A DNA stretch of 32,000 nucleotides from an uncultured Clostridia bacterium (GTDB taxonomy: Bacteria > Bacillota > Clostridia > Christensenellales > Aristaeellaceae): positions 3,009 to 35,008 of the forward strand of contig CALCTW010000034.1 of assembly GCA_937907055.1 (NCBI GenBank), written 5' to 3'. The notes beneath the pieces were generated by a model that did no database searches, was not told the DNA's origin, and was given only the letters and a program-made list of their open reading frames with translations. The position numbers were made by a program, and so were the translations under genes. The number at the start of each line of letters is the position of its first letter. Position 1 is the first letter of the stretch. Of the stretch, positions 8,436-32,000 are shown piece by piece.

Positions 8436-8476
8436 GTTGACTAGAATTGCTCTGAGGAGCAGAAAGTGAGAATAAT

Positions 8477-9151
8477 ATGACGGATATTTTTACTGTCGCG
8501 GATCTACTAGAAATCATTAGGGATTATAAAATGTATCTTCAAGGGAAGGTACATTTTGCTCCGGATGGTTGGCCGATAATGGAGCGAGAATGGTTCCTCG
8601 ATGTATGGCCTGATGAACTTGTTCCATATCCAAATCGGAACAATAAACTGTATCACAACAAGCACAATTCTACTCTATGCTACTATTGCGCTGACAATCG
8701 CATCTATCCAAGATTCAATAACCTGTTTCAAGAAATCGGATCATACAAAGCATTTCAAGGAGTTGTTGGACCGGATATCACAGTTACCAGAGACATGGAT
8801 ATCGAGCTGCAACAATCGATTATGTTGGCAAATCAGTTGTTTATGGCGATTCTTGCAGTAAATGGAATCAAAGTTGTACTTAACACCCGTTGCGGGGGAT
8901 TGGCAACAGTATCGTGCTTCCGATACCTCCCCAAAGGGATTATGTGTGCATCCGGCTTCCTTGGTTGCAGCAATTCCCGTACAACATCAGAAGCGAGCAT
9001 ATATGTCAACAAGGTGTTATCTTTACGGCCGTCTAAATTGCTTGTATACGGAAAGCAAGATGAATTGGTTAACCAACAATTGGATACGCTTGGTATTAAC
9101 TATAGGTATTACGAAGATTTTCATCGTATTTCTTGCAGGAGGTGCGTGTGA
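8477..9151 (+). CDS. DUF4417-like protein (function unknown)
   Basis: The sequence follows the pattern I recall for DUF4417: FQGVVGPDITVTRDMDIELQQSIMLANQLFMAILAVNGIKVVLNTRCGG, then KGIMCASGFLGC, then PSKLLVYG. This rests on recollection, not on a search. Confidence 0.65.
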   Translation: MTDIFTVADLLEIIRDYKMYLQGKVHFAPDGWPIMEREWFLDVWPDELVPYPNRNNKLYHNKHNSTLCYYCADNRIYPRFNNLFQEIGSYKAFQGVVGPDITVTRDMDIELQQSIMLANQLFMAILAVNGIKVVLNTRCGGLATVSCFRYLPKGIMCASGFLGCSNSRTTSEASIYVNKVLSLRPSKLLVYGKQDELVNQQLDTLGINYRYYEDFHRISCRRCV

Positions 9152-12562: not shown

Positions 12563-14400
12563 TATTCACACGCCTCCTCTCCGGAAAGGCTCTGGATATC
12601 GTAGATCTGTTTATATAGTCCCTCCTGACGCGCCAGTTCCTCCGGCGTGCCCAGCTGGGCGACCCGGCCATGATCCAGCACAAGCACCTGCTCTGCCTTG
12701 GACAGGGTGGTGATGCGGTGGCTGATCAGGATGATGGTCGCGCTGCCGAAACGCTTTTCAAGCGCGGCGCGGATCTTCGCGTCGGTCTCGGTATCGACTG
12801 CGGACAGGGAATCATCAAAGATCATCACCGGGGTCTTCTGCGTCAGCATACGGGCAATGGCCGCGCGCTGCTTCTGACCGCCGGACAGCGTAACGCCGCG
12901 CTCACCCACGAAGGTGTCATAACCCTTGCTGAAGCCGTTGATCGTCTCATCCAGGCAGGCGGCCTTCGCGGCCTCGTCGATATCCGCCTGGATCAGCGCG
13001 TCATTGGTGATCATCAGGTTTTCCTTCAAGGTGCGCGAGAACAGGAACGGCTCCTGCAGAACGATGCCGATGTTCTTCCGCAGATGCTCCATGCGGATCT
13101 CATTGATGTCCCTGCCGCCGATAGTGATCCGGCCGTTCTCCGGCTTCAGGGGATACAGGCGGTCCAGCAGATACATCAGCGTGCTCTTACCGCTGCCCGT
13201 ACCGCCCAGAATGCCCAGCGTGGTCCCGGCCGGGATCCTGAAGGAGATGTCATGCAGCATCTCGGGGCAGTTGTCATACCCGAAGCTCACATGATCGAAT
13301 ACGATATCCCCGGTCATATCGGCATCCGTCACGCCCGGCGCGTCCTTCTCTTCGTCCGCGTCCATGATATAGCCCACACGGTCGATCGCGACACCGGCCT
13401 TGCTCATCTCGCTGATCATGCGGCCCAGCTGACGGACAGGCCACACCAGCATGCCGTTGTAGCTGACGAAGGCGATATACTGGCCGGGTGTCATGTCTCC
13501 GTTCAGCACGAAGATCACACCGAAAACGCTGGTCAGCATCACCTGAACGCCCACCAGAATATCGCTCGTGATCCAGAAGCGCGCCAGGATCATGGCCATT
13601 TTTGTCCACAGGGATGTGTAGTAATCGTTGTGCTTTTCAAAACGGTCACGCTCGTAACGCTCCCGTCCGAAGGCGCGCACCACACGCACACCGGTCAGGT
13701 TCTCCTGCGCCATGGCGCTCAGCTTGCCCTCGTTTTCATCGCACTTTTCAAAAGCCTCTCCCACCTTATTGTGGAACACCAGCGAATAGATGACCATGAT
13801 GGGCATCGGCGCCAGCGCGACCAGCGTCAGAAGCGGATTCATCCCGATCATGAAGACCAGGCTCATGACCAGCAGGATCACGATGCGGATCAGGCCGGTC
13901 ATCTGCTCGGAAATAAAGTTGCGCATGGTATCGATATCGCTGGTGCAGCGCTGGATGATATCGCCCGTGTGATTCTGCATGTGCCACTGGAACGGCAGGC
14001 GGCTGATGTGCGAATAAAGCGTATCGCGCATGTTCTTGACCAGTGTTTCGCTGCCGCGGGCATTGGTCACGCGGAAGCCGTACTGGCAGATCACCTTGAC
14101 CAGCGCCACCAGCACGATGGCGAGCGCCAGGATCCACAGATCCTGCCTGAGCTGCGCCACACCGCCCACCTTCGCGATCAGATCCTGCACAAAGGGGCTC
14201 AGACTGCTGAGCTCCTGCCCGCCGATGACATTATCCACCGCCACGCGGATGATCTGCGGGGTGATCATGTCGCTCAGCGCGCTGAGCGCCGCGCAAAGCA
14301 TGCACAAAAGGAACATGGCCCGCGCGCCCCTCAAAAATGCCCAGATCAGTTTCGCGCGTCCGGGCCGCTTTTCAGACGGCTTTGAAATCGTATTTTCCAT
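12562..14400 (-). CDS. ABC transporter permease/ATP-binding protein (type I exporter half-transporter, first of pair)
   Basis: Walker A GGTGSGKS, signature LSGGQKQR, Walker B VMIFDDSLSAVD. I chose the start at the ATG at 14400 (MENTISK...) because GGGAGGGA precedes it. The longer track ORF to 14463 lacks an SD. Confidence 0.92.
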   Translation of the reverse strand: MENTISKPSEKRPGRAKLIWAFLRGARAMFLLCMLCAALSALSDMITPQIIRVAVDNVIGGQELSSLSPFVQDLIAKVGGVAQLRQDLWILALAIVLVALVKVICQYGFRVTNARGSETLVKNMRDTLYSHISRLPFQWHMQNHTGDIIQRCTSDIDTMRNFISEQMTGLIRIVILLVMSLVFMIGMNPLLTLVALAPMPIMVIYSLVFHNKVGEAFEKCDENEGKLSAMAQENLTGVRVVRAFGRERYERDRFEKHNDYYTSLWTKMAMILARFWITSDILVGVQVMLTSVFGVIFVLNGDMTPGQYIAFVSYNGMLVWPVRQLGRMISEMSKAGVAIDRVGYIMDADEEKDAPGVTDADMTGDIVFDHVSFGYDNCPEMLHDISFRIPAGTTLGILGGTGSGKSTLMYLLDRLYPLKPENGRITIGGRDINEIRMEHLRKNIGIVLQEPFLFSRTLKENLMITNDALIQADIDEAAKAACLDETINGFSKGYDTFVGERGVTLSGGQKQRAAIARMLTQKTPVMIFDDSLSAVDTETDAKIRAALEKRFGSATIILISHRITTLSKAEQVLVLDHGRVAQLGTPEELARQEGLYKQIYDIQSLSGEEACE

Positions 14401-16306: not shown

Positions 16307-17179
16307 ATGAACAAAAAGCTCCTCGGACATCTGCTCGCGCTTTTCTCCTGCTGTGTATGGGGCACCACCTTTATCTGCTCCAAGATCCTGCTGCAGCACA
16401 TGACGCCGGTCACGCTGCTGCTCATCCGCTTTGTGCTGGGCTTCTTTGCCCTCTTCCTGCTCTACCCCAAGCCGATGCCCTTCCTTGGCCTGAAAAAGGA
16501 GTTGATCCTGCTCGGCGCGGGTGTCAGCGGCATCACGGTCTATTATCAACTGGAAAACACCGCGCTCCTCTATGCTGATGCCTCTCTGGTCAGTGTCATC
16601 ATCTGCACCGCGCCGTTCTTCGTCACCATCTGCTCCCGCCTGTTTCTCCGCACGGAGAAGCTGCGCCGCGGCTTTATTCCGGGCCTGCTCATTTCCACCG
16701 CGGGCATCTGCGTGATGAGCTTTACCGGCGCGCTGCAGCAGACCAGCCTGTCCGGCGTGCTGATGGCCGTGATCGCGGCGATGTCCTGGGGCTTTTATTC
16801 TGTCTTCACCAAAAAGGCGGAGGCCTTCGGCTATCACACCATCCAGACCACGCGCCGCCTTTTCCTGTACGGCACGCTGGGCATGACCCCCTTCATCCTG
16901 CTTGACAAGGATTTTTCCCTTGACTTTTCCCTGATCATTCAGCCGGAGATCCTGATCAACCTGCTGTTCCTCGGCATCGTCGCCAGCGCGCTCTGCTTTG
17001 TCACATGGAATACAGGGCTCAAGCATCTGGGCACGCTGTCCTCCAGCGTTTACATCTATCTCACCCCGGTCATCACGGTGGCGTTTTCTGTTCCCATCCT
17101 GCACGAGCAGCTTTCGCTGCAGGGTGTGATCGGCATTATCCTCACCCTGCTCGGCGTGATCGTTTCCGAATGGCTGTAA
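16307..17179 (+). CDS. EamA/DMT superfamily transporter
   Basis: A 10-TM hydrophobic profile with two EamA-like halves. The N-terminus [21 protein letters not shown] is typical. Confidence 0.88.
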
Positions 17180-17249
17180 GAACACTTCCTTACAGAAAGC
17201 CCAAAAACACGCAGAACATCGATACCGATCCATGACGATCATCATAAAA

Positions 17250-17284
17250 GCCGCGCGAGGCAGACTCACGCGGCTTTGTTTTTT
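17250..17284. terminator. Bidirectional terminator between convergent genes
   Basis: GCCGCGCGAG gcaga CTCACGCGGC hairpin (17250-17274), with an A-run before it and TTTGTTTTTT after it. Confidence 0.6.
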
Positions 17285-17286
17285 GA

Positions 17287-18000
17287 TCATTCAAGGATCA
17301 TATAGCGCTTAAACAGTGGCACCAGCTCATCCGCTTCCGACGGGGCGTAGCGCGGCGAGATCGCGAGCGAAACAAAATCATACGTCGCTTCAGCACGGAA
17401 TTCCTCCGGCCCTCCGTACACGCGGAAGGGGATCTCCGGCTCGGGACCGTTCTGTTTTTCAAACATCCTTGAAGTCAGGGAGACCATTTTGATCGTGCCG
17501 GGATCATCCGGCTTCAGGATCTCCTTCGGGATATCCGGACGCGAGAAGGGCTGACGCACATTCTCCAGCGCGCGGATCCGGCGCATGGCCAGCGCAAACA
17601 GAAGATAATTGGCCTCGTCCAGCTTATGGTCCGCGTAAAACGCGTTCAGATCCAGACGCTTTTCCACAGCGCGGCTGATGACATTGTACAGCACATAGCC
17701 CGGCCCGGGATAACCGATGCCCAGATCGCTGTGCGCGTCGATATGCGTCGCCTCGAAGGGGGCCGTCAGCCGGCCTTCTCTGATCAGCTGTTCCCACCAG
17801 ACCAGTGCCTGATCATGGGTCTCAAACACGCGCCCGGGAATGGGCCGCGCGGCATCCAGCCCGCACTGCTCCTCCAGAAAACGGCGCGCCCGTTCCTCCG
17901 GCCAGGGCTCATGCCCCGTCAGGCAGGGGCGCTCCCCCTTTTCCGCCAGCGGACAGCAATCCGCCAGAAAGAAATCCAGATCGATATCCAGTACCCGCAT
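17287..18000 (-). CDS. UPF0489-like protein (arginase/deacetylase-fold, uncharacterised)
   Basis: N-terminal LDIDLDFF and a HIDAHSDLG motif, as I recall them for UPF0489 and arginase-like metal sites. AAGGATG SD is present. Confidence 0.6.
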
Positions 18001-18046
18001 ATGTTTTCATCCTTGCATTCCGGGACGGCTCAGAGGCCGCGCCGGA

Positions 18047-19081
18047 TCATTTCTTTTCTTTGACATCCGCCCTGCCGGCAATGATATCCCGGTAATCCGC
18101 CAGATTCTTCTTGAGCAGCGTGGGGATCGGCAGTTCATACGGGCAGCGGCTCAGACAGGCGCCGCATTCCACGCAGTCATCGATCTTTTCCATTTCGACC
18201 TGCCATTCCGGGCTCAGCCAGTGAGTGGTCGGAGAACGGCGGATCATCTGGCTCATGCGCGCCGCCTGATTGATCTGGATGCCCACGGTGCAGGGCATGC
18301 AGTAGCCGCAGCCGCGGCAGAATTCGCCCAGCAGCTCCTTCCGGTCGGCATCGATCACCGCCTGCAGCTCCTCCGTCATCACGGCATCCCGCTCAAAGAA
18401 GCTCAGCCACTGCTCCAGCTCGCTCTCCTTCTGAACGCCCCAGATGGGCAGGACGGGATACTGTGTCATGAACGCCATGCAGGCATCCGCGTTAGTCAGC
18501 AGACCGCCGGAAAGGCCCTTCATGGCAATGAAGCCCATGTCAGCCGCTTCACACTTCTTTACCAGCGCGATATCGCGGTCGGACGCCAGATAGGAGAACG
18601 GGAACTGCAGCGTTTCATACAGGCCGCTTTCCACGATCTCCTCCGCCACGCCGATCTTATGCGCCGTGATGCCGATATGACGGATCATGCCTTTTTCCTT
18701 CGCCTCCAGCAGGGCTTCATACATGCCGGTGCCGTCGCCGGGACGATAGCAGCGATCCGCGCAATGCAGCTGATAGATGTCCAGATAATCGGTCTTCAGA
18801 TTGGTCAGGGTCGTGTTCAGATCCTTCCAGAACTGCTCCGGGGTCTTCGCGCCGGTCTTGGACGCGATGAAGATCTTTTCACGCATGCCTTCAAAGGCAA
18901 TGCCCAGCTTGACCTCGCTGTCCGTATACGCGCGGGCGGTATCAAAGAAGGTCATGCCGCCTTCATAAGCCCTGCGCAGGATACGCACGGCCTCCTCCAC
19001 GGACACACGCTGCACCGGCAGCGCGCCGAAGGCGTTCTTGGGGGTCACGATCCCGGTCTTACCCAGTTTGATCATTTCCAT
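18047..19081 (-). CDS. Aldo/keto reductase with a C-terminal 4Fe-4S cluster domain
   Basis: AKR N-terminal pattern (GKTGIVTPKNAFGALPVQR..., FFDTARAYTDSE). C-terminal Cys motifs CRGCGYCMPC and CVECGACLSRCP. The start was chosen at MEMIKLGK (19081). Confidence 0.87.
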   Translation of the reverse strand: MEMIKLGKTGIVTPKNAFGALPVQRVSVEEAVRILRRAYEGGMTFFDTARAYTDSEVKLGIAFEGMREKIFIASKTGAKTPEQFWKDLNTTLTNLKTDYLDIYQLHCADRCYRPGDGTGMYEALLEAKEKGMIRHIGITAHKIGVAEEIVESGLYETLQFPFSYLASDRDIALVKKCEAADMGFIAMKGLSGGLLTNADACMAFMTQYPVLPIWGVQKESELEQWLSFFERDAVMTEELQAVIDADRKELLGEFCRGCGYCMPCTVGIQINQAARMSQMIRRSPTTHWLSPEWQVEMEKIDDCVECGACLSRCPYELPIPTLLKKNLADYRDIIAGRADVKEKK

Positions 19082-19149
19082 GTTTTCTTCCCTGCTTTCT
19101 GTATTTTTTACTAATAATAAAGCCCTGTTTAGAATAAATAAACCGTCTT

Positions 19150-20295
19150 TTATCCTCTCATCCGGTCCAGGCACACCGCCAGTGTGATCTTCAGCCCGGG
19201 CAGCAGAGAGTCAATCTCCACCCATTCATCCTGGGTGTGCGCGTTCCTGCCGCGCATCGCGCCGATCGTGACGCCGGGGATCCCCGCGCCGAGCGCGCTG
19301 TTGGCATCGGTGGAACCGGCGCCCTCGCGGATCTCATTCCCCGCGTAGGTCTGCTGGATCGCTTTCATGTCATCGGTCAGCTTCCGCAGAACCGCCTCAT
19401 CCACGCCCTGCCTGCAGGGACGGATGCCCAGCGTTTCCACGTCGATCGACATTCCCTCCTCACGGAAACGGCGGATCGTCTCCTCAAAGAAGGCGCGCAT
19501 ATCCTGCATCCCCTCCTGATTCGGGCTGCGGTATTCATACAGAAGGCTGCACTCCGCGCAGATGCTGTTGACCGTCGTGCCGCCCTCGATGACCCCCGCG
19601 TTATAGGTCGCGCCGGATACCGGTACCTTCTCATACAGCGCGCGGATCACCTCCGCCATCTGCACGATGGCATTGGTATTGCCGAAGCACTTGTAGGAAT
19701 GGCCGCCCTGCGCGCGGATCCGGATCCTGTACCGTTCGGAGCCCACCGCGTCATTGACGATGGCATCCATGGAGCCGTCGATGGAGATCAGGGCGCTCAT
19801 GCGGCTGCCGTATTCCTGCACGATCCGCCGGGAGCCCTTCAGATTGCCCAGCCCCTCCTCGCAGCTGTTGGCGACAAGGATCAGATTGCCGTTCGCGAGT
19901 TCCGGATGCTGTATCAGATAGCGGCCCGCCATCATGATGGATACCAGATTGGCCGTGTCATCCCCGATCCCGGGGGCGTACAATTTGCCGTTTTCCTCTC
20001 GCAGCGGCAGCGGATCCGTATCCGGAAACACCACATCGGTGTGCGCCATCAGCACGGTGACCGGCCCATTGCCGTCATCCCGCGCCGGCCAGATCACATT
20101 CTGCGCTTCATCGATCCGAACACCCTCGGCCCCGGCGTTTTCCAGCCACGCCTTCACAAACGCCGCTCTTCGGCCTTCATCATGCGAGGGCGCCGGGATC
20201 GCGCCCAGTGTTTTCAGCAGATCAAGCAATTCCTCCGCGTGGGCATCGCACCACGCCTCCTGCTCCGCGGTCAGATAATTTTTCTTTTCTGTCAT
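19150..20295 (-). CDS. M20/M25/M40 family metallopeptidase (dipeptidase/deacylase-like)
   Basis: AHTDVVFP, GIGDDTANL and NSCEEGLGNLKG metal-ligand motifs. The start was chosen at MTEKKNYL (20295), with GAGGG 7 nt upstream. Confidence 0.87.
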   Translation of the reverse strand: MTEKKNYLTAEQEAWCDAHAEELLDLLKTLGAIPAPSHDEGRRAAFVKAWLENAGAEGVRIDEAQNVIWPARDDGNGPVTVLMAHTDVVFPDTDPLPLREENGKLYAPGIGDDTANLVSIMMAGRYLIQHPELANGNLILVANSCEEGLGNLKGSRRIVQEYGSRMSALISIDGSMDAIVNDAVGSERYRIRIRAQGGHSYKCFGNTNAIVQMAEVIRALYEKVPVSGATYNAGVIEGGTTVNSICAECSLLYEYRSPNQEGMQDMRAFFEETIRRFREEGMSIDVETLGIRPCRQGVDEAVLRKLTDDMKAIQQTYAGNEIREGAGSTDANSALGAGIPGVTIGAMRGRNAHTQDEWVEIDSLLPGLKITLAVCLDRMRG

Positions 20296-20305
20296 TGCAA
20301 AGCCC

Positions 20306-20995
20306 TCACAGCTGCTGATCCCGGCGTTCGGCGCGGAGGATCGCGTTCCGCATGGCGAAGGTGATCTCATCCGCGCGGACGATCTCCACCCCCGCGAACG
20401 GGGCATCCAGCAGCCGCTCCCACATGAAGCGCGCGGCACGCAGGTTTTCGTTGATCTCCTGCGCGCATACCGCTTCACGGGCGGAGGGCATGAGGGTGAG
20501 CAGACGGCGGTACAGCGCGGTGTAGGTGTCCCACAACAGCTGCGGCACCGAGGGCAGAGTGTAATAGACGGTTCCCTCTGCCTTCAGCTGCTCCAGCACG
20601 GCTTCCATTTCCGGGCGGAAAAGCGCCTCCTGAGCCTTCAGGATGGCCTGCAGCACCACATCGCTCTCCGTGGTCCCGGCCAGCGGCAGCAGCAGCGCCA
20701 TCATTTCCTCCTCGCCGTGGCGGAACGGAACGGCGTGATACAATAGACCGTTCAGTTTTTCCAGCGGACGGTGATAATCCTTCTGCTGATAGGCGGCGAA
20801 AGCCATCTCGCTCCTTCTGGCGCACACCTCGCTCAGGATCTGCAGCTTGCTTTCAAAATGATGATAAAAGCTGCCCTTTGTGCACTGAAAGGCTTCCACG
20901 AGCTGCTGGATCGAGGTCTGGTTATAGCCTCTTTCAAAAAACAGTTTTTCCGATAATTTGATCAGGTTTTCCTTCTTGATCTCACCCTTCAGCAT
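20306..20995 (-). CDS. TetR/AcrR family transcriptional regulator
   Basis: N-terminal HTH LIKLSEKLFFERGYNQTSIQQLVEAFQCTKGSFYHHFESK. The start at 20995 (MLKGEI) is preferred because GGAAGG lies 8 nt upstream. The alternative is 21016. Confidence 0.87.
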   Translation of the reverse strand: MLKGEIKKENLIKLSEKLFFERGYNQTSIQQLVEAFQCTKGSFYHHFESKLQILSEVCARRSEMAFAAYQQKDYHRPLEKLNGLLYHAVPFRHGEEEMMALLLPLAGTTESDVVLQAILKAQEALFRPEMEAVLEQLKAEGTVYYTLPSVPQLLWDTYTALYRRLLTLMPSAREAVCAQEINENLRAARFMWERLLDAPFAGVEIVRADEITFAMRNAILRAERRDQQL

Positions 20996-21671
20996 CTTCT
21001 TCGCCTTCCTTTTCATCGATCATATACGCCAGATCCGCCTTCAGCGACTGATAAAAGCTTTCCACCATGCGGGATTTTTCATCCCACATCGCGCGCGCGG
21101 CCGGGGTCACCATCGGGCTGAGCCGTCGGGCGTAGCGCAGGGTGTATTTTTCGATATGCTGCAGCGCGTCCTTGAAATCACACTGCGGATTGCGCGCCTG
21201 CTCGATCCGCGTATCCATGATGATGCCCATCGCGCCGCTGTCATCAAACAAATCGGCCTCCATCAGCATGAGCAGCATCCTGGGGATATCGGGATTGCGC
21301 ATCCGCGCCTTATCACTGTGCGCGGCGACCAGCTCGCACACACGGTTGACTTTATCACTGCTCCAGCCCTGCCCGGTCAGATACTCCCGCGCGATCTCCG
21401 CGCTCTTCTCCGCGTGCCGGGAGGTATCCTCGCACAGCACATAGCCGCTGTCGTGGAAAATGGCCGCCGTGATCAGGATATCCTGTTCCTCGATCGTCAG
21501 CCCGCCCTGCTTGCCGATCAGCCGCATGGTCCACGTGACCACACGCTTGGTGTGATCAAACCGGCTGTAGCGGATGGAGGCCTTGGTGCCGAAGGTGTGC
21601 GTATAGCCCACCAGACACTTTTTCACATGCCGCAGCATGGCGCGGTATTCATTCATTCGTTTTTCATCCAT
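20982..21671 (-). CDS. HD domain phosphohydrolase
   Basis: The H...HD motif (AAIFHDSGY) is present with downstream conserved His/Asp. The GAGGAGGGG SD overlaps the VanW stop. Confidence 0.85.
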   Translation of the reverse strand: MDEKRMNEYRAMLRHVKKCLVGYTHTFGTKASIRYSRFDHTKRVVTWTMRLIGKQGGLTIEEQDILITAAIFHDSGYVLCEDTSRHAEKSAEIAREYLTGQGWSSDKVNRVCELVAAHSDKARMRNPDIPRMLLMLMEADLFDDSGAMGIIMDTRIEQARNPQCDFKDALQHIEKYTLRYARRLSPMVTPAARAMWDEKSRMVESFYQSLKADLAYMIDEKEGEEDAEG

Positions 21672-21684
21672 GACCGTCCCCTCC

Positions 21685-23697
21685 TCAAAGGCTGTACTCG
21701 ATCACCTGACGGATCATCTTGTAGATGGAATCAAACAATTTCACTCTTCTGTACTCGACCCCGTTGAGCTTGTAGATCCTGTAGGTCTCCACCGTGTACC
21801 CGGTGCGCGCCTTCTTGACCTCGCGCTGGGTGCCGCTGGGCAGAGAACTGTTCAGGATATATTCCGCCTCTGCCGGCGGCTTCTCGGTGCGCGTGACCAC
21901 ACTCATCAGTTCAATGGTCTCGCCCGCGGGCGGCGCGACCCCATAAAACTCCACCGTGCATTTTCGGCCTTCATAATAAGCCACGATGAACACGGGCCAT
22001 TCTTTATCGTTTCTGAAGCAGAAATCCAGATTGGGCCAGTTCACCGTCGCGTCGCGGCCCTTATCCACATAGGAGCTGGGCCAGGTGTGCGCGTAATGCT
22101 CCGTGATGGACATATCCGCCAGCGCGGCCGCGTTGAACAGCGTGCTGCTCACCTGACAGACACCGCCGCCGATATCATCCACCGTGGTGCCGTTTTTGAT
22201 CGCGGCAGCCGCCATATAACCCTTGGCAGCCGTGCGTTCACCGGTGCAGGCGTTGAAGGAAAAAGTCTCCCCGCTCCCCAGCACCGTACCGTTCACCGCC
22301 TCACAGGCCAGCAGGATATTCATGTTGCGTTCCGGATCATCGGTGGTATCGGTCGTAAAGGAAGCGATCTTCGAGAAGGTGCTCATGAGCTTGGTCTTCG
22401 TCACGGCAGGCTGTACGATGCCGGGCTCCAGGATCACCTCGCCGGTGTACTGCCCCTGATCCAGCATGGAGATCAGCCCGGCGTACAGGGCTTCGGTATC
22501 GATCGTCCGCCCGCTTTTCTCTTCCGTGAACACGAAGGTGCGCGTGGTAAAATCGAACGCCGCGACCGTGGCATCCACCGCCGGAGAAGTCTCCGCCGCG
22601 CCGATGGACTGCACCACCTGCTGCACATCGCCCCTGGAATAGGTGACGCGCGTGTAATAGTACGCGCCGTTCTTCGCGATCTGCTCCATCTTTTTATACC
22701 GGTATTCCACCGGCGAAAGCATGGTATCCGCGATGCCCTGACGCGTCAGATTGAGCGCTTCGTTGAGCACCGCCGCGGTATTGCGGTAAAAAGGAATATG
22801 ATCGCTCGTCACGCGGTAGCTGCCGCCGCCGCGGATGGTGACGGTGATATCGATTTTGGGCGTGCTTTCCGCGTGATCGGCCTTCAGCGCTATCTCGGCT
22901 TCTTCCCGGGTCATGCCGCCGACGGCGACACCGTCCACCGTGATCCCCTCCGGAAACCGGCCGCCGTATACGGCTTCCACGCGGCGGCGATGGGCAGGCT
23001 CGCCGGAGATAAAGTAGCGGTCGATGAGGCTGCAGCCCATCCAGATCAGCAGCGCCGCGCAGACAAGACTGATGAGCACCCACGGCCACCGGTGACCGGA
23101 CGGCCCGGACGGCTTTCCGGCAGGCGTTTCCGCGTACCTTTCATTTCCGCGGCTCCTCGCGCGAGGATGATCACCGGGGGCCGGAGCGGCCTTCGCGCCG
23201 CCGTTTTCCGGGCGTAGACGGGCATGACCGACCGCGGGATCCCCCGTATCTCCCCAGCCGACCGGGATATCATAGGCATCCTGAATGGAAGCCGCGGGCA
23301 CGAAAGCCGGCTGTGTTCCGGGCGCGCGGGCGTCATCGCCCCAATGATCCGGGATCCCGTAAGGATCCGCGTATGCGGGCTTCTGCTCCGGCGCGGCTCT
23401 GTTTTCCCCGGCGATCCGCGCGCGGAGGACCTTCTTTTCCCTGCGTTTTCCGCGCCGCGGCTGTTCTTCTTCATAAACGGCGTCCGGATAGGGTGTTTCC
23501 GTGCCCCAGTCCTCCGGGACCGGCACAGCGCCCTGAAGCGGATCTTCCCCTGCAGGATAGGCGGGCGGCATCTGCCGCGAAACAGGAGGCATATACGCGT
23601 TTTCCGGGACAGGCGCGGCGCTGCCGGGATCATCCCATATGTCATCCGGCACGGGCGCTTCCCACAGATCGCTGTTCTTCCGCTGATCCGGGCGCAT
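21685..23697 (-). CDS. VanW family protein with a Pro-rich cytoplasmic N-terminus, a TM helix and a C-terminal G5-like domain
   Basis: VanW core GGGVCQVSSTLFNAA...HYAHTWPSSYV...GRDATVNWPNLDFCFRND. The C-terminus TGYTVETYRIYKLNGVE is G5-like. The start was set at the ATG at 23697 (AGGAGG upstream). An alternative lies 21 nt further up. Confidence 0.85.
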   Translation of the reverse strand: MRPDQRKNSDLWEAPVPDDIWDDPGSAAPVPENAYMPPVSRQMPPAYPAGEDPLQGAVPVPEDWGTETPYPDAVYEEEQPRRGKRREKKVLRARIAGENRAAPEQKPAYADPYGIPDHWGDDARAPGTQPAFVPAASIQDAYDIPVGWGDTGDPAVGHARLRPENGGAKAAPAPGDHPRARSRGNERYAETPAGKPSGPSGHRWPWVLISLVCAALLIWMGCSLIDRYFISGEPAHRRRVEAVYGGRFPEGITVDGVAVGGMTREEAEIALKADHAESTPKIDITVTIRGGGSYRVTSDHIPFYRNTAAVLNEALNLTRQGIADTMLSPVEYRYKKMEQIAKNGAYYYTRVTYSRGDVQQVVQSIGAAETSPAVDATVAAFDFTTRTFVFTEEKSGRTIDTEALYAGLISMLDQGQYTGEVILEPGIVQPAVTKTKLMSTFSKIASFTTDTTDDPERNMNILLACEAVNGTVLGSGETFSFNACTGERTAAKGYMAAAAIKNGTTVDDIGGGVCQVSSTLFNAAALADMSITEHYAHTWPSSYVDKGRDATVNWPNLDFCFRNDKEWPVFIVAYYEGRKCTVEFYGVAPPAGETIELMSVVTRTEKPPAEAEYILNSSLPSGTQREVKKARTGYTVETYRIYKLNGVEYRRVKLFDSIYKMIRQVIEYSL

Positions 23698-23896
23698 AGG
23701 ACCTCCTTTTAAAAACATACCATTTTCTACAATTCTATCCTCATACAGCGGTTTTGTCAAGAAAACACGCGGTTTTTACGCGGGAATACAGCGAAAAACA
23801 GCACAGAAAACCGAAAGAATACACTCCGGCTGTTTGACGGCACGGAAATCTTTGATATACTGTGCGTATCGCGTTCGCAGAAACGGAGGAAAACGC

Positions 23897-24720
23897 ATGT
23901 TCAAGAAACTGAAACAGGTTTTCAGGGAGGATTCGCCCTACCGTCTCTTTTTGCTGACATTGCTGATCACAGGTGTCGGCTACGGTATTTACAAGGGCAT
24001 CCTCGACAACTACATGGCCGAGGTCGTCCACATTGAAAAGATGGACCGCGGCGTGGTGGAATTTTTCCGCGAGATCCCGGGCCTGCTGCTGATCTTTATC
24101 ACAGCCGCGCTGTACACACTTTCCGCGGAGCGCATTTACAAGATCGGCGCTGTCATCATGCTGGGCGGCATGGTGATGATCTCCGCCGTACCGGCCACCA
24201 AGGCACTGGTAACGATGGCGATCTGCCTGTATTCGCTGGGTGAGCACATCCAGCTGGGCATGAAAAACACCCTTTCACTGGAATACGCCAAGGCGGGTCA
24301 GGGCGGCAAAGCGCTGGGGCATCAGAACGCCATGTCCAATATCGGCACGGTGGCCGGTTACGGCATCGTCATCGCCGCGTTCTCGCTCTTCAGCACGGAA
24401 AAGCCCTTCCGTCTTTTCTTCTCCGTCGGCGCTGTGCTGATCGGCATCGCCATGCTGCTGTCCTTCCGCATTCCAGGCAAGAGCCGGCAGACCGGCCAGA
24501 AGCGCTTCTATTTCCGCAAGAAGTTCACCAAGTATTATATGCTGGAGGTCTTCTACGGCGCGCGCAAGCAGGTGTTCTTCACCTTCGGCCCCTACCTGCT
24601 CATCCTTCATTACGGCGCGGACGCCCCGGTCATCAGTCTGCTGTTCGCCATTTCGGCTGTCGCGGCCTACTTCCTGGCCCCGCTCGTCGGCAACATCATC
24701 GACAAGGTGGGCTACAAGGC
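23897..24720 (+). CDS. MFS transporter, N-terminal ~275 aa only (truncated at the composition breakpoint)
   Basis: GGAGG SD lies 7 nt before ATG 23897. About eight TM helices are followed by an abrupt switch of sequence character at ~24.72 kb within the same open frame (track ORF 23834-25288). Confidence 0.7.
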
Positions 24721-25288
24721 CGTAGAGAATTTATACTTCTCTGCAGTGTTCAACTTCAGGTCGCAGTTTGCAGAGGGCTACAAGAGCCAGACAGACAAGA
24801 CTCCGATCTCCGCTTTCTTCGCTCCTGCATATGCCACACTCGGTCTTGGTATCGACTACACCCCGAGCAAGAACATCTCCGTCAACTTCGCGCCTCTCAC
24901 CGGGAAGACCGTTATGGTCAAGATTCCTGAACTGAGGTCGACATACGGCAACGCTGATGACCAGTTCTGCCGCTTCGAGCTCGGTGCCCAGCTGAAGATG
25001 GATGGAAAGATCGAGGTTCAGAACTTCAAGGCCTCCACTTCCGTGACACTCTTCTCCGACTATCTGAACAAGCCTTTGAACATCAAGGTCAACTGGGATG
25101 CCAATGTCGAGGCGAAGATATCCAAGTATTTCTCCGTCACGCTCAGGACCAACATGATCTATGATGACAACATCAAGCTCACAAAGGTCAATGACCGTAC
25201 CGGCGAGACTTATCAGGCTGCCGGAGTCCAGTTCAAGGAACTCTTCTCGATCGGCTTCACCTATACAATCGGCGACAAGAAGAAATAA
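24721..25288 (+). CDS. DUF3078-like outer-membrane beta-barrel protein, C-terminal fragment
   Basis: NLYFSAVFNFRSQFAEGY, SAFFAPAYATLGLGIDYTP, FAPLTGK, TLFSDYLNKP and RTNMIYDD match the Bacteroidota DUF3078 pattern as I recall it. There is no N-terminus or signal peptide. Confidence 0.65.
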
Positions 25289-26586
25289 TGACCCTTCAGG
25301 AGAGATTTGACGCGCGTCTGCGCAGTTTCACGGCGGGCGAACCCCGCAGGGTGCTTCTGGCAGTGAGCGGCGGCGTCGATTCGATGACGATGGCCTCCCT
25401 GTTCCACGACAGCGGGGCCGTCTCCTTTTCTGTGGCACACGTCAACTTCCGGCTCCGCGGCGCGGAAAGCGACGGCGACGAATCGCTGGTCAGGGAGTGG
25501 TGCAGTGAAAGGGGAGTGGAACTCTTTGTCAGGGAGTTCGACACCGGACGCTGGGCTGAGGAGCACTCTGTCTCCATAGAGATGGCTGCCCGTGAACTCA
25601 GATACGGCTGGTTTGAAGAACTGGCGGCTGAGAAAGGCTTTGATTTCATTGCCGTTGCCCATAACCTGAATGACCGCAGTGAAACGCTGATGCTCAATCT
25701 GCTCCGCGGCACAGGCCTCCGCGGCCTGGCGGGCATACGCTCACTGAACGGCAGGATTATCCGTCCGATGCTCGATTTCACACGCAGGGAGATAGAGCAG
25801 TATGCCGCCGCGAAGGGGATTGCATACCGGACCGACAGCACCAACAGCGACGTGACTTTCTCGCGCAACCGCTTGCGCAACAATGTCTTCCCTGAATTTG
25901 AGAAGATAAACCCGTCATTCCTGACCACTTTCCGTACGGAGATGGAGCGTTTCGCTGAGGCTGAGCAGATGATGGATGAGTTCTACAATGCCCGTGCCGG
26001 CGAGCTCTACGGCTGGAACCAGTCCGGAGCCTTCGGCATAGACATCTCCCAGCTGCAGATAGGCGGCCATCCGCGTTACTGGCTCTTCAGGATCCTTGAC
26101 CAGTTCGGTTTCAACGACGCCCAGCTTGACGGCATATACGCCTCCCTGGACTCCCAGAGCGGCAAGAGGTTCTTCTCCCCGACACACATCCTTGTCAAGG
26201 ACAGGGAGTATCTGATGGTGTACCCGCTTTCGTCGGGTGAGATTCCTGACGTTAAGATCGAGGTCCTTGATGACCTCCGCGGCTTCGATCCCCGTGCGCT
26301 GCCGGCCGGCACCCTGTGCGTTGACTCGGCTCTTGTCAATCTTCCTCTCGGATTCCGCCACCCACGTCCTGGTGACCGTTTTGTGCCTTTCGGAATGAAG
26401 GGCTCCAAGCTGTTGAGCGACTATTTCACTGACCTGAAGCTGGATGTTGAACAGAAGTCCCGCGAGGTGGTTGTGACCACAAAGAAAGACGGCGCCGAGG
26501 TCATCGTCGCCGTCCTCGGCCGCCGTATCGACGACCGCTTCAAAGTGTCGGCAGCTACCGTTTCGGCGCTGCTTCTATCTCGGTAG
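25288..26586 (+). CDS. tilS: tRNA(Ile)-lysidine synthetase
   Basis: PP-loop motif AVSGGVDS, and AHNLNDRSETLMLNLLRGTG, typical of TilS. The ATG overlaps the upstream stop (TAATG). Confidence 0.9.
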   Translation: MTLQERFDARLRSFTAGEPRRVLLAVSGGVDSMTMASLFHDSGAVSFSVAHVNFRLRGAESDGDESLVREWCSERGVELFVREFDTGRWAEEHSVSIEMAARELRYGWFEELAAEKGFDFIAVAHNLNDRSETLMLNLLRGTGLRGLAGIRSLNGRIIRPMLDFTRREIEQYAAAKGIAYRTDSTNSDVTFSRNRLRNNVFPEFEKINPSFLTTFRTEMERFAEAEQMMDEFYNARAGELYGWNQSGAFGIDISQLQIGGHPRYWLFRILDQFGFNDAQLDGIYASLDSQSGKRFFSPTHILVKDREYLMVYPLSSGEIPDVKIEVLDDLRGFDPRALPAGTLCVDSALVNLPLGFRHPRPGDRFVPFGMKGSKLLSDYFTDLKLDVEQKSREVVVTTKKDGAEVIVAVLGRRIDDRFKVSAATVSALLLSR

Positions 26587-26878
26587 CCTCGAATCCGATC
26601 CTGTTGATTGCTGCGGCAAGCTTTTCCTTGTCGGTCTTTGACGCATCATACTTGATCCAGACAGTCTTGTCTGCGAGAGTGACTTTCATGTCCTTGATGC
26701 CCTTCTCGTCAGGGAGCTTCGCCTCGACCTTCTTGACGCAGTTCTTGCAGTCAATCGAGGTTACGAAGGTGACTTCCTGATACTTGGACTCTTTTTTCCT
26801 CCTGTTCTGAGCGTCGGCGCTGAATGCGAAGCTGCCCACGAGCAGAAGAGCTGTCAAAAGTGTGAGAAAACGTTTCAT
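26555..26878 (-). CDS. Heavy-metal-associated (HMA) domain protein with signal peptide
   Basis: MKRFLTLLTALLLVGSFAFSA signal peptide, then the HMA-like fold motif VTSIDCKNCVKKVE (CxxC). The start was set at 26878, not the longer track ORF. Confidence 0.8.
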   Translation of the reverse strand: MKRFLTLLTALLLVGSFAFSADAQNRRKKESKYQEVTFVTSIDCKNCVKKVEAKLPDEKGIKDMKVTLADKTVWIKYDASKTDKEKLAAAINRIGFEATEIEAAPKR

Positions 26879-26906
26879 AGCGGTGTATGTTTTTTGAATG
26901 TTGCTG

Positions 26907-29147
26907 TTATTTCCAAAGAGTGTACCGAAGTCCTGCATAGAACTTCGCCCCCATAAGAGGCCCCCATACGTTGCTGGCGTCGAACGAGTATGTGAAAGGG
27001 GAATTCCATCCGATGATGGCTTCCTTCTGGCGGAATCCGCCGAGGTTCTCGCCTCCGATATAGACATCGATGCCGCCCCTGAACTTGTGGGTCACCTGGG
27101 CGTAGAACATAGGGTATACAGGTGAACGGTCCATCCCCCAGGCCATGCGTGCTGCTCCGTTGAGCTTCATCGGGCCGTTGACCTGGGCTGTGAAGTCGAA
27201 CACCCATTTGCTCATTGGCGTGGAGTACTGCAGATTGAGCACTCCCTTGCAGCGGCTGGTCATCGGGCGTTCCTGCAGGCCGGCGCCGAGGTATGTCGCC
27301 TTTGCATCGGTGTAGCGGAATGTTGCAATGATGTTGAACCTCTCGAAAGGGTCGACTGAGAAGTCGGCCTGGTAAGTGTTCGTATAGGATTGCGCCCCTT
27401 CGCCCAGGCTGTCCATATCGTAGAAGAGCACTGTTCCCGTGATGCGGTCAGGGTCAACGGTCACCTGGTGGTTGAAGTCGTTGCGGAAGTAGTCGAAACT
27501 GAGATAGGTGTCTGAGTCCTCTGCTCCGAACGGGAGGTAGAAAGTGGCGTTTGCACCGAAGGTCCAGGCATCCTCCAGAAGGTTGAGGTCACGGGCGACG
27601 GACAGCATGTACCCTGTTGACATCACTCCGAGGTTGTCTGTGATGAGGTCGGCTGTGCGGTATCCGCGTCCGCCGAGGGCCCTCAGGACAATGTTCTCGG
27701 TAAGTGACCATTTGAGGTTCGCCCTCGGGGCGAAGAGCCAGCCGTGGACAGAGTTGTGCTCGAGGTTGAGGCCGCCTACGAATGTGAGCCTGTCATCCAG
27801 GGTGAAAGTGTATTCCCCGAATGCGGCAACTGAAGTCTCTTTTCTGCTGAGGTCAAGGTCAGGCAGGACTGGGTGTGCTGCAATCTGGTCGATGTCGTCG
27901 TGTTTGAACGTGAGTCCGAACTCCACTTTGTGCAGGCTGCTGATCTCGTTCTGGTATATGAGGTTTGCGAATGCGGAGTTCTGGGTGCCGTTGAAAGTCT
28001 TCTCTCCGAAGAAGGAGTCGAATTCGTGGTGGTTGAAGTCCGCCACAAGGGCTATGTTGGCTGAGTTCTCCTCATTGAGGGGAATGCCAATCTTGAAATA
28101 AGGGTTGACGCCCCTGTTCCGGATACTGGTCCCCCATATGGATTTCTGGAGATTGAAGCCGTTGTCCCTTGTCGCGTCCATCTGTCCGCCGAGGCGGTCG
28201 TCATTGATGAACCGCGCGCCGAAACGGATCTGCATCCCGCTCGGAGCATAGTACAGCCAGCGGGAGGTGAAGTTGAACTGGAGGTTCTCAGGCTCGTCGC
28301 GGAATCCGTCACTGTTGTGGTCCATACGGGAGGCGGTGCCGCCCACGTGGCCCATATTGATCATACTCCACTTTTCATTGAACTGGATGGCGGAGGCGAT
28401 ATTCGCCTCATACATCCTGTCGAGGCTGCCGTAGAGCTGGACGAAGAGCGGTGTCTCATCGGTCGGCTTGCGGTGCTCCATATTGATCTGGCCAGTGATG
28501 GCCTCGAGGCCGTTGATGACTGAAGACGGACCTTTTGCGATCTGGATGCTCTCGAGCCACTGCCCTGGGATGAACGAAAGGCCGAAAGGGCTTGCGAGAC
28601 CGCGCATCACAGGCCTGTTCTCATCGAGCATCTGGGTGTAGGTGCCAGAGAGACCGAGGAGCTTGATCTGGCGTGCGCCTGTGACAGCGTCGGAGAAACC
28701 GACAGTGACGCTGGCGGAGTTCTCAAAGCTCTCTGCCAGGGCGCAGCAGGCCATCTTGCACAGCCCGGCGGAAGTGATGACTTCAGTCCTTACGGGATTG
28801 AGTTTGGAAAGTCCTGCCTGGCGGCCTGTCACAACGCTCTCGTCAAGGCCGTTCTCGCCTGTGAGATAGAAACTTGCGCTGGCTGTGCCCGGCTCTACGA
28901 CGACAGTGTCGCGGGTGTAGCCCACATAGGTGGCGACAAGCGTGGCGGTCTGCTTGATGTCGAGGGTGAAGCGGCCGTTCTCATCGGTCTCTATCATCTT
29001 CGATTTCTCCAGATGGAACACCTGTGCGAAAGGCAGCGGCTCTGTCTGTCCGGAGGCTCTTTTATAGAATACGCTTCCCTGGAATGACTGTGCGGGAAGA
29101 AGCGTTGCGAATGCTGTGAATAGTAAAAGAAATGCTGTTTTTTTCAT
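26907..29147 (-). CDS. TonB-dependent receptor with an N-terminal carboxypeptidase-regulatory-like domain
   Basis: A signal peptide, a CarbopepD_reg-like segment (GSVFY...ETDENGRFTLD), plug-domain motifs, and a C-terminal barrel ending in ...GLRYTLWK. Confidence 0.92.
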   Translation of the reverse strand: MKKTAFLLLFTAFATLLPAQSFQGSVFYKRASGQTEPLPFAQVFHLEKSKMIETDENGRFTLDIKQTATLVATYVGYTRDTVVVEPGTASASFYLTGENGLDESVVTGRQAGLSKLNPVRTEVITSAGLCKMACCALAESFENSASVTVGFSDAVTGARQIKLLGLSGTYTQMLDENRPVMRGLASPFGLSFIPGQWLESIQIAKGPSSVINGLEAITGQINMEHRKPTDETPLFVQLYGSLDRMYEANIASAIQFNEKWSMINMGHVGGTASRMDHNSDGFRDEPENLQFNFTSRWLYYAPSGMQIRFGARFINDDRLGGQMDATRDNGFNLQKSIWGTSIRNRGVNPYFKIGIPLNEENSANIALVADFNHHEFDSFFGEKTFNGTQNSAFANLIYQNEISSLHKVEFGLTFKHDDIDQIAAHPVLPDLDLSRKETSVAAFGEYTFTLDDRLTFVGGLNLEHNSVHGWLFAPRANLKWSLTENIVLRALGGRGYRTADLITDNLGVMSTGYMLSVARDLNLLEDAWTFGANATFYLPFGAEDSDTYLSFDYFRNDFNHQVTVDPDRITGTVLFYDMDSLGEGAQSYTNTYQADFSVDPFERFNIIATFRYTDAKATYLGAGLQERPMTSRCKGVLNLQYSTPMSKWVFDFTAQVNGPMKLNGAARMAWGMDRSPVYPMFYAQVTHKFRGGIDVYIGGENLGGFRQKEAIIGWNSPFTYSFDASNVWGPLMGAKFYAGLRYTLWK

Positions 29148-29197
29148 TTTGTCTGGTTATGGTTGTGTTGTCCGGTATCTTGGGGGATATCGGAAAA

Positions 29198-29596
29198 TCA
29201 CAGCCTCCAGACAGAAATGAGGGCCCTCGGTATGCCGGGCGGGATGCCGGTGAAGAGGGATGGCGCGGCGGAGCGGCAGGATGCTGCAGCCGGTGCGGCT
29301 GCAAGCGGCTGGCTCAGCGCTGCGGAGAGGACGGGCACGATGTGGGTCTGGCTTCCGGTGTCGGAGTCCTGAGCGTCGGTGATGACGAGGATCTCAGTTG
29401 TGCAGCAGCCGGCGTGGTGATGGTGCTCATCCTCGTGGTGATGGTGGTGGACCGACTCGCAGGAGATGTCTCCGGCGAGAAGCACAAGATGGGAGACTCC
29501 CTCCTCGCTGCAGTTATGGATGCCAATGCCCATATACGAAAGGATATATGTGCACAGGAGCGCGATGCAGGATATGTGCCTCAGGAAGCCGGTCAT
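29198..29596 (-). CDS. Small His-rich membrane/secreted protein, possibly HYC_CC_PP family
   Basis: The hydrophobic N-terminus MTGFLRHISCIALLCTYILSYMGIGIHNC, a HHHHHEDEHHHHAGCC block and a C-terminal IPPGIP match the order of the H-x-C, CC and PP motifs. It sits directly upstream of the TonB-dependent receptor. The start (29596 or 29638) is uncertain. Confidence 0.5.
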   Translation of the reverse strand: MTGFLRHISCIALLCTYILSYMGIGIHNCSEEGVSHLVLLAGDISCESVHHHHHEDEHHHHAGCCTTEILVITDAQDSDTGSQTHIVPVLSAALSQPLAAAPAAASCRSAAPSLFTGIPPGIPRALISVWRL

Positions 29597-29620
29597 ACCG
29601 CAAAATAACAATAAAATTGT

Positions 29621-29628
29621 TATATTTG
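29621..29628 (+). promoter_or_regulatory. Bacteroidota-type -7 promoter element (TAnnTTTG) upstream of sppA
   Basis: TATATTTG lies 37 nt upstream of the sppA ATG. I saw no clear -33 element. Confidence 0.35.
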
Positions 29629-29664
29629 CAAAATTCATTTGAACACAATCAAAATAGACAGACA

Positions 29665-31434
29665 ATGAAAATATTCTGGAAAACCGTTTTCGGTTCATTC
29701 ATCGGCGCGCTTCTGGCCATGCTGGTGATGACTCTGCTCACCTTTGGCATCATCGGCTCTATTGCCTCTTCGGGCAGCAAAGAGACCTCCACGGCAGTGG
29801 CTCCTAACTCTGTACTGAAGATTGACCTTTCGAAAGGTTTCTCGGAGAAGGGCGGAGAGTCTTTCTCATTCGATATTATCTCCGGCACTCCGTCAATGGG
29901 TTCGACGATGCCTCTGAACAATGCTGTGAAGGCCATCAAGGCTGCGGCCTCTGACCCTGCTGTCAGCCTGGTCTATATCACTCCTGCCCCTGCTGCGTCT
30001 CTTACTGTCAGCCAGATCGAGGAGCTGCGTGCGGCACTCTCATCCTTCCGCGAGAGCGGCAAGCCGGTGGTGGCATACTGCAGCTCGATGACAACCGGTC
30101 TTTACTATCTCGTGTCTGTCGCTGACAAGGTTATTCTGAACACATATGGCGACTGCATGTTCAGCGGCCTGAGCTCCACGATGTTCTATTACAAGGACCT
30201 GATCGACAAGCTCGGAGTCGATGTCCAGCTTATCCGCCACGGCAAGTACAAATCAGCTGGCGAACCGTATATCAAGAGCGAGATGAGCGCCGAGAACCGC
30301 GAACAGTACGAGGTTATGCTCGGCACTATCTGGAACACGATGGCCGAGACCATCGCTTCATCCCGCGACTTCTCAGCCGAGGATCTGAACAGCTGGATTG
30401 ACAACCTTGCTATCGAATCCGCTGAGGATGCGAAGGCAAAGGGCATTGTCGACGAGCTCTGGTATGACGACCAGGTGGAGGAGTACCTCTGCTCGCTCGT
30501 CGGTGTGGAGAAATACAAGGATGTGAAGAGCATCTCCCTTCAGAAATATGCCGCATCAAAGGTAAAGCCTGACTTCCGCGCAAAGGACAAGATCGCTGTG
30601 ATCTATGCTGACGGAGAGATTGTGATGGGCGACAAGAGCGATGGCCAGATCGGAGACAATTTCGCGAAGGAGATCGCCAAGGCGCGTGCCGACAGCTCTG
30701 TCAAGGCAGTCGTCTTCAGGGTCAACAGCCCGGGCGGAAGCGTTCAGGCATCAGCAATCATCGAGCGCGAGATCGAGCTCCTCAAGGCTGAGAAGCCTGT
30801 TATTGCAAGCTACGGTGACTATGCCGCCTCCGGCGGATACTGGATCAGCTGCAACTGCGACAGGATATTCTCCAACAGGACCACTCTCACCGGCTCCATC
30901 GGAGTCTTCGGATTGATTCCGAGCTTCGGCAAGGCCATCAAGAAGAACCTCCATCTCAACACATTCGAAGTCTCGACCCACAAGCACGGAAATATGGGAG
31001 ATATGATCAACCCTCTCGATGCTGACGAAGTTGCCTGGATGCAGAATTCCATCGAGACTGTCTACGATGATTTCACATCAAGGGTTGCAAACGCCCGCCA
31101 GAAGTCTCAGGAGAGCGTCGACTCAATCGCGCAGGGCCGCGTCTGGGCAGGTGGTGATGCCATCGTCATCGGTCTCGTCGACCAGCTCGGCGGCCTGGAG
31201 GATGCCATTGAATATGCAGCGGATGCAGTTGGTCTTGAACACTATCAGCTCGTTACATACCCTGCTCCGAAGACCACTTTCGAGAAACTTATGGAATCAA
31301 TGAACGAAACAGAGGTTTCAGCGGCTGCCGGCACCCCTGAGGCTGTGGCTGAAAGGGCGAGCGGGAGAATCCTCGGCCTGAAGGGCTCAGAGACCTTCGC
31401 CCTTATGCCTGAAATCTGTGTAAAATGTAAATAA
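29665..31434 (+). CDS. sppA: Signal peptide peptidase SppA, 67K type (two S49 domains)
   Basis: An N-terminal TM segment (FGSFIGALLAMLVMTLL), tandem S49 domains, and the catalytic-region motif YAASGGYWIS. Confidence 0.9.
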   Translation: MKIFWKTVFGSFIGALLAMLVMTLLTFGIIGSIASSGSKETSTAVAPNSVLKIDLSKGFSEKGGESFSFDIISGTPSMGSTMPLNNAVKAIKAAASDPAVSLVYITPAPAASLTVSQIEELRAALSSFRESGKPVVAYCSSMTTGLYYLVSVADKVILNTYGDCMFSGLSSTMFYYKDLIDKLGVDVQLIRHGKYKSAGEPYIKSEMSAENREQYEVMLGTIWNTMAETIASSRDFSAEDLNSWIDNLAIESAEDAKAKGIVDELWYDDQVEEYLCSLVGVEKYKDVKSISLQKYAASKVKPDFRAKDKIAVIYADGEIVMGDKSDGQIGDNFAKEIAKARADSSVKAVVFRVNSPGGSVQASAIIEREIELLKAEKPVIASYGDYAASGGYWISCNCDRIFSNRTTLTGSIGVFGLIPSFGKAIKKNLHLNTFEVSTHKHGNMGDMINPLDADEVAWMQNSIETVYDDFTSRVANARQKSQESVDSIAQGRVWAGGDAIVIGLVDQLGGLEDAIEYAADAVGLEHYQLVTYPAPKTTFEKLMESMNETEVSAAAGTPEAVAERASGRILGLKGSETFALMPEICVKCK

Positions 31435-31442
31435 CCGGCTCA

Positions 31443-32000
31443 ATGAAAAGAATCATCATAATTGCTGTGGCCCTTCTGGCCGCTTTTTCCGCAAACGCCC
31501 AGACCTGGGTCAGAATCAATCAGGCCGGCTACCTTCCCGATGACTGCAAGGTGGCGGTCCTTATCTCGACAAATCAGACTGACGGCGAGTTCTCCGTGTG
31601 CGAGGCACTCTCCGGAAAGGTGGTCTTCAAGAGCACTGGCGTCCCTGCCAACCCTTCAAAATGGGCTCTCAAGAGCGCCTGGAGACTCAATTTCTCAAGC
31701 GTGAAGACCCCGGGCAGCTATTATATCGTGTCGAACGGCGTGGAGTCTCCAGTCTTCCGCATCGGTGCAGACGTCTATGACGGACTGGCAGACTTCCTGC
31801 TTATCTATATGCGCCAGCAGCGCTGCGGCGACAACCCTTACACAGGTGAGCTCTGCCATCAGCACGACGGCTATATCGTGGACCACCCGACCCGCACCGG
31901 CGAGCATATCGACGTGACCGGCGGCTGGCACGATGCAACCGACTACCTCCAGTATATGACCACCTCTTCCACGACCATCTACCATATGGCATTCGCGTGG
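31443..32000 (+). CDS. Glycoside hydrolase family 9 protein, N-terminal part (3' end outside window)
   Basis: Not in the ORF track because it has no stop within the window. ATG 31443 is in frame to base 32000 (186 codons). Signal peptide MKRIIIIAVALLAAFSANA, an Ig-like CelD_N-type segment, then DVTGGWHDATDYLQY, which resembles the GH9 GGW(Y/H)DAGD motif. Confidence 0.75.
   Translation, partial: MKRIIIIAVALLAAFSANAQTWVRINQAGYLPDDCKVAVLISTNQTDGEFSVCEALSGKVVFKSTGVPANPSKWALKSAWRLNFSSVKTPGSYYIVSNGVESPVFRIGADVYDGLADFLLIYMRQQRCGDNPYTGELCHQHDGYIVDHPTRTGEHIDVTGGWHDATDYLQYMTTSSTTIYHMAFAW

Follow-up and report, generated by a model that had tools for sequence, protein, structure and literature searches.

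The fused open reading frame and its two flanks

The window analyzed here, a stretch of 32,000 nucleotides, contains an uninterrupted open reading frame from 23834 to 25288 on the + strand. Its likely start is the ATG at 23897, which has a GGAGG seven bases to its 5' side, and translation from this codon to 25288 gives a product of 463 amino acids. Pfam matches MFS_1 (PF07690) to residues 19–274 of this product (E = 1.1e-10), covering only positions 2–268 of the 347 in the model, which falls short of a complete two-lobed transporter, ~400 residues long in this subfamily. Residues 268–295 match the last 28 positions (65–92) of the 92-position DUF3078 model (PF11276) with 24.3 bits, just below the Pfam gathering cut-off of 25 bits for this family, because just the tail of the model remains in the fusion. 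The fused copy of DUF3078 is neither full-length nor above the cut-off, and it has no signal peptide.

Three parts can be distinguished in the coding sequence, all on the + strand. The part specific to the MFS gene (23897–24702) encodes, together with the 21 nucleotides that follow it, residues 1–276 of a 402-residue protein that we refer to as P0002. These 21 nucleotides (24703–24723) are present in the genomes of both parents and form the breakpoint word. The 3' part of the DUF3078 gene (24724–25288) encodes residues 115–301 of a 301-residue protein, P0004, followed by the stop codon. The product is therefore P0002 residues 1–276 joined in frame to P0004 residues 115–301, and the residues across the join read ...APLVGNIIDKVGYKAV|ENLYFSAVFNFRSQFAEGY..., just as the first-pass annotation had written them. 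That annotation had described an MFS N-terminus and a DUF3078 C-terminus within one open reading frame, a description upheld both by the Pfam matches and by the identity to P0002 and P0004. We also follow it in taking the DUF3078 protein to be an outer-membrane protein. The combined product would then consist of about two thirds of an inner-membrane transporter and, from the C-terminal side, two thirds of a DUF3078 protein lacking its signal peptide, a combination that would have no plausible function in a monoderm.

The DNA to the left of the word (1–24702) is a Clostridia-type (Bacillota) segment, as judged from synteny, Pfam content, Shine-Dalgarno (SD) use, tetranucleotides, and the homologues of its MFS part. 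It encodes a class A PBP, DegV, ABC exporters, an SH3b protein, EamA, an aldo-keto reductase, an M20 peptidase, TetR, an HD protein, VanW/G5, and the 5' part of the MFS gene. The class A PBP, DegV, SH3b, and the VanW protein with its PG_binding_4 and G5 domains are gene content typical of Gram-positive bacteria. The DNA to the right (24724–32000) is a Bacteroidales segment, as judged from its matches to two contigs described below (L001 and L009), the absence of SD sequences, Pfam content, and tetranucleotides. Here the DUF3078 part is followed by tilS (25288–26586, + strand), an HMA protein (26555–26938, − strand), a TonB-dependent receptor (26907–29147, − strand), an outer-membrane protein that contains a CarboxypepD_reg domain, a 132-residue open reading frame (29198–29596, − strand), sppA (29665–31434, + strand), and the start of one further gene. 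Along with outer-membrane genes, the right segment thus carries the housekeeping genes tilS and sppA. The immediate neighbors of the join are VanW/G5 and tilS according to Pfam, with no integrase, transposase, or other mobility gene at the join, and the window contains no tRNA.

The join coincides with changes in SD use, in tetranucleotide composition, and in codon usage. A GGAGG-like motif lies 6–12 nucleotides before the start in 8/8 left genes checked and in 0/6 right genes checked, which agrees with the contrast in SD use reported by the first-pass annotation. Tetranucleotide profiles correlate at 0.80–0.91 among left chunks, apart from an island at 6.7–10.3 kb, and at 0.75 between the two right chunks, compared with 0.46–0.69 for right versus left. 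The codon-usage shift claimed earlier was likewise reproduced, together with this step in composition: a leave-one-out test placed each of the 13 left genes and each of the 5 right genes with its own side. When the open reading frame is divided, its N-terminal part scores +17.6 log-likelihood units (left) and its C-terminal part −43.6 (right). A further signal proposed for the right side, the Bacteroidota promoter motif TAnnTTTG, did not hold and was dropped as evidence because it occurs 5 times against 7.0 expected and so is not enriched; one copy lies at 29621–29628, 37 nucleotides upstream of sppA.

Two other features of the left segment deserve mention. Between 6700 and 10500 lies a low-GC island, with a GC content of 0.41–0.48 compared to 0.55–0.63 around it and a tetranucleotide profile that is related to neither half of the window (r = 0.0–0.27). 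The island encodes a 394-residue protein (6963–8147) with weak, sub-threshold matches to HTH_3 and Peptidase_M78 (ImmA/IrrE-like), a DUF4417 protein (8477–9151), and three small open reading frames with no Pfam match. We found no tRNA and no flanking repeats, and megablast gave no match in phages or plasmids. It may have arisen as a genomic island, located between DegV and an ABC exporter, or as a second misjoin. The second feature is a set of long open reading frames antisense to real genes of the GC-rich left half, among them 450–3668 (−), 12670–14385 (+), and 21637–23217 (+); the one opposite the class A PBP gene is 1072 residues long. These are most likely shadow open reading frames of high-GC coding sequence rather than genes.

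Parental loci of the MFS and DUF3078 genes

A protein search with the 463-residue product retrieved P0002, an intact MFS protein of 402 residues that matches the first 60% of the fusion at 100% identity. It is carried by two contigs, L005 (k141_659371 in ENA, 100,405 bp) and L006, both of which extend the MFS gene to its full 402 residues; the copy in the window is without residues 277–402, the last 126 of its parent. L005 aligns to the window at 16841–23777 and 23807–24723 with 97.1–97.6% identity, and the two share the gene order EamA, UPF0489, aldo-keto reductase, M20 peptidase, TetR, HD, VanW/G5, MFS. On its far side, the MFS gene of L005 is followed by radical-SAM/TRAM, CDP-alcohol phosphatidyltransferase, recA, an ABC transporter, recJ, and relA; neither the radical-SAM, CDP-alcohol phosphatidyltransferase, and recA genes nor the later genes of L005 are found within the window. 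These left-parent contigs belong to another strain, at 97.6% DNA identity to the window, and the exact left parent is not among them.

Residues 1–276 of the fusion, identical to P0002, are 62–70% identical to the other Clostridia MFS transporters listed. Among the matches listed, all named MFS relatives come from Bacillota, Clostridia, Clostridiales, or Lachnospiraceae metagenome-assembled genomes (MAGs), at 62–68% identity. The listed relatives are 393–412 residues long, whereas the window copy ceases to be an MFS protein past residue 276. All five MFS sequences inspected retain the GYK motif that lies at the join.

The left parents also reveal two differences between strains. Over window positions 23807–24723 there are 22 nucleotide differences in 917 bases relative to L005 and L006, yet MFS residues 1–276 are 100% identical, so that all differences within the coding part are synonymous; this is consistent with strong purifying selection on the transporter. 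In addition, L005 carries ~1.7 kb of extra DNA (L005 positions 7078–8757) between the VanW and MFS genes, where the window has just 29 unrelated bases (23778–23806). Encoded in this stretch of L005 are an AbiEii-family protein and a 180-residue partner, probably a toxin-antitoxin pair, and the difference is one of strain-level presence or absence of a toxin-antitoxin or defense module.

The same search identified the other parent as P0004, an intact DUF3078 protein (PF11276) of 301 residues that matches the last 42% of the fusion at 100% identity and is carried by contigs L007 and L008. Fusion residues 270–463 correspond to residues 108–301 of P0004, and the window copy is without residues 1–107 of its parent, signal peptide included. 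In five contigs from different samples and assemblers (Logan, MEGAHIT, and SPAdes), namely L001, L002, L007, L008, and L009, a complete 301-residue DUF3078 gene lies directly 5' of tilS, with another gene upstream of it. The alignments of all five to the window begin exactly at 24703. DNA identity to the window is 99.2–99.8% in L001, L002, L007, and L008, with L001 aligned over 24703–31833 at 99.2%, and L009 aligns over 24703–32000 at 91.4%. L009 is a MAG labeled Bacteroidales bacterium (JAZRVT010000003.1) and a species representative, and its TilS protein is 96% identical to that of the window. This is also the best identity among the 80 tilS loci kept, most of which are labeled Bacteroidales or other Bacteroidota. 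The order DUF3078, tilS, HMA, TonB-dependent receptor, sppA is the same in the window, L001, and L009.

The DUF3078 stop codon and the start codon of tilS overlap in the sequence ATAATG (window 25285–25290), and the 3' end of tilS overlaps the convergent HMA gene by 32 bases (26555–26586); both overlaps are present in L001 as well. Among the mostly Bacteroidota tilS loci, one (L082; JAMPGY010000013.1, 71,935 bp) comes from a MAG labeled Clostridium sp., with a tilS relative that is 42% identical. The bin of L082 may be mislabeled or contaminated.

The first-pass annotation had held both genes to be truncated at the join, and the parents, intact at 402 and 301 residues, bear this out. It had also proposed classifying the two halves separately, which assigns the MFS side to Bacillota/Clostridia and the tilS side to Bacteroidales/Bacteroidota. 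The MFS relatives, gene content, tilS labels, SD use, tetranucleotides, and codons all place the two flanks in different organisms, belonging to different phyla.

The breakpoint word

The two parents have in common 21 identical bases at 24703–24723, CAAGGTGGGCTACAAGGCCGT. The codon phase of this word does not differ between the two genes, each of which translates it to KVGYKAV (residues 270–276 of P0002 and 108–114 of P0004). Column-by-column comparison places the break at the two ends of this word: the left parents L005 and L006 are identical to the window at the word up to 24723 and unrelated beyond it, and the right parents L001, L007, and L008 are unrelated before 24703 and identical from there on. 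When ~45 kb of left-type DNA is compared with ~30 kb of right-type DNA, it is the only 21-mer in common, and no 22-mer is shared. The exact word occurs only in L001, L005, L006, L007, and L008. L002 and L009 have a T at 24721, which makes the word strain-specific and not a conserved site. Two genomes of 2.5–4 Mb are expected by computation to share ~3–7 21-mers by chance, so a graph node of this kind needs no biological cause.

The length of the word coincides with the smallest default k in MEGAHIT and SPAdes, which is 21. The parameter pair k-min 21 and k-max 141 is quoted in 52 papers recovered by a literature search, and the parent contigs bear MEGAHIT-style k141_ names. A study whose MAG naming resembles that of L009 assembled each sample with MEGAHIT v1.2.9, setting only the minimum contig-length option (PMC12632101). 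Judging from these related contigs, the window was probably assembled by MEGAHIT with a k-min of 21, and with that setting the word shared at the breakpoint is at least as long as the assembler's k. At k = 21, an overlap of exactly 21 nucleotides forms a single node of the graph, and at the next k it can no longer be seen; this is the least that a false join requires. Anything shorter would have spoken against a k = 21 join, and the overlap found is exactly 21.

Part of this word had been noticed before as a repeated 10-mer, GGGCTACAAG, thought to be the short shared k-mer at which the contig was misjoined. The 10-mer does occur twice, against 0.08 copies expected by chance, although at 24709–24718 and 24775–24784, 66 bp apart, rather than at 24710–24719 and 24773–24782 with a spacing of 63 bp. 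A shared word does exist at the join, but the 10-mer is merely part of the 21-mer. Both copies are native to the DUF3078 parent, so that the join owes nothing to the second. We therefore rejected the repeat as the mechanism, the word actually shared being 21 nucleotides long; nor is the second copy, native as it is to the DUF3078 parent, a target duplication.

Origin of the join

Taken together, the comparisons indicate that the window is very probably an inter-genome chimeric contig, that is, a translocation misassembly, and not a biological fusion. The first-pass annotation had already put forward a chimeric contig as the likeliest explanation, and this is now backed by intact parents (~97.6% identical on the left and 99.2–99.8% on the right), each with its own synteny, by the 21-nucleotide overlap, and by a junction that is unique. 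Assemblies made independently carry each flank beyond the breakpoint and on into its own genome. The fused gene and protein almost certainly exist in neither organism, the real genes being those for the 402-residue MFS transporter and the 301-residue DUF3078 protein.

We propose that two bacteria present in the same kind of sample, one Clostridia-type and one Bacteroidales, happened to share one identical 21-nucleotide word. In a k = 21 de Bruijn graph, the first default round of MEGAHIT and SPAdes, the word would form a single node crossed by both genomes. Were the low-depth branches pruned, the assembler would enter this node by the Clostridia path and leave it by the Bacteroidales path. Where two paths enter a node and two leave it, a de Bruijn assembler would normally end the contig, and the explanation consequently needs uneven coverage or pruning, which is assumed here. 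Because the codon phase of the word is the same in the two genes, the join yields an open frame of 463 codons.

The junction itself is confined to a single record. The fusion protein (P0001, 463 residues) forms a cluster of one member, from one contig of 35,010 bp with NCBI and ENA as sources, among ~15 billion proteins. Among the matches listed, none besides P0001 covers more than 60% of the 463-residue query, so none spans both halves. A degenerate 53-nucleotide pattern of the junction had 0 matches in one genome each of 185,579 species and 0 in JGI metagenomes, and an exact-product look-up of the fusion protein in a gene-position index, in which the window's own contig is absent, returned no contig, as did look-ups of the HD protein (20982–21668) and of DegV (5754–6641). 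Recurrence of the junction in independent samples, strains, or assemblies, as expected of a genuine fusion or transfer, was not observed in these searches.

The main biological alternative is a real and very recent inter-phylum transfer, in which the 21 nucleotides served as microhomology for illegitimate recombination and at least 7.3 kb of Bacteroidales chromosome was inserted into a Clostridia genome, disrupting both genes. An identity of this length could in principle serve illegitimate recombination, as is established, and adjacent ENA assembly accessions suggest that both organisms occur in related samples. The reading frame moreover stays open across the join, although this follows automatically from a word in the same phase. 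If true, the window would be a snapshot of inter-phylum chromosomal transfer without a mobile element in a gut community, moving the DUF3078 3' part, tilS, HMA, the TonB-dependent receptor, and sppA. We consider such a transfer very improbable. The junction is present on one contig only, the overlap is exactly the assembler's minimal k, and mobility genes are absent at the join. The cargo would consist of housekeeping and outer-membrane genes without SD sequences, of which the outer-membrane genes would be useless in a monoderm. Furthermore, the genes that usually follow in the left organism are missing from the window, and a second, unseen junction would be required.

A laboratory origin, in which PCR template switching or amplification chimerism joined the two DNAs at the 21 nucleotides and the chimeric molecule was then sequenced and faithfully assembled, would leave an identical contig, and template switching is known to be favored at short identical stretches. 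However, the chimeric molecules would have to outnumber the true paths, and the coincidence with k = 21 is more simply explained by the assembly graph. We rate this origin as slightly less probable than a transfer. Least probable of all is an artificial concatenation of two unrelated contigs, possibly by a later processing step, which the first-pass annotation had raised as an engineered alternative: the abrupt break and unrelated flanks would fit, but the exact 463-residue product is already on public record in NCBI and ENA on the 35,010-bp contig, and a blunt join is not expected to land on a 21-nucleotide word common to both sources.

Under the favored explanation, misassembly at a shared k = 21 node, the fused feature is without biological novelty. 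With no biology in the fusion, its value is practical, as a database error only. Both the deposited MAG contig (35,010 bp) and the deposited 463-residue "protein" would be artefacts and should be flagged. The contig places at least 7.3 kb of Bacteroidales DNA in an otherwise Clostridia-type contig, and such a contig can inflate contamination estimates, produce false calls of horizontal transfer, and seed a false MFS-DUF3078 domain architecture in protein databases. It also provides a clean worked example of how a k = 21 join can be diagnosed without reads, by locating both parents and measuring the length of their overlap.

In the CAMI benchmark datasets, inter-genome translocation is the commonest type of misassembly, and ~65% of breakpoints fall inside coding sequence (PMC9661791). 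The window resembles the de Bruijn metagenome misassemblies addressed by metaMIC (PMC9661791) and DeepMAsED, with the same join of unrelated genomes at a word at least as long as k, the same location of the breakpoint within coding sequence, the same change in composition, and the same continuation of the flanks into different sequence in other assemblies. There is no difference of substance between those cases and this one. The curiosity of the window is that its word stands in the same phase in both genes, with the result that the error looks like an intact gene of 463 codons and was deposited as a protein.
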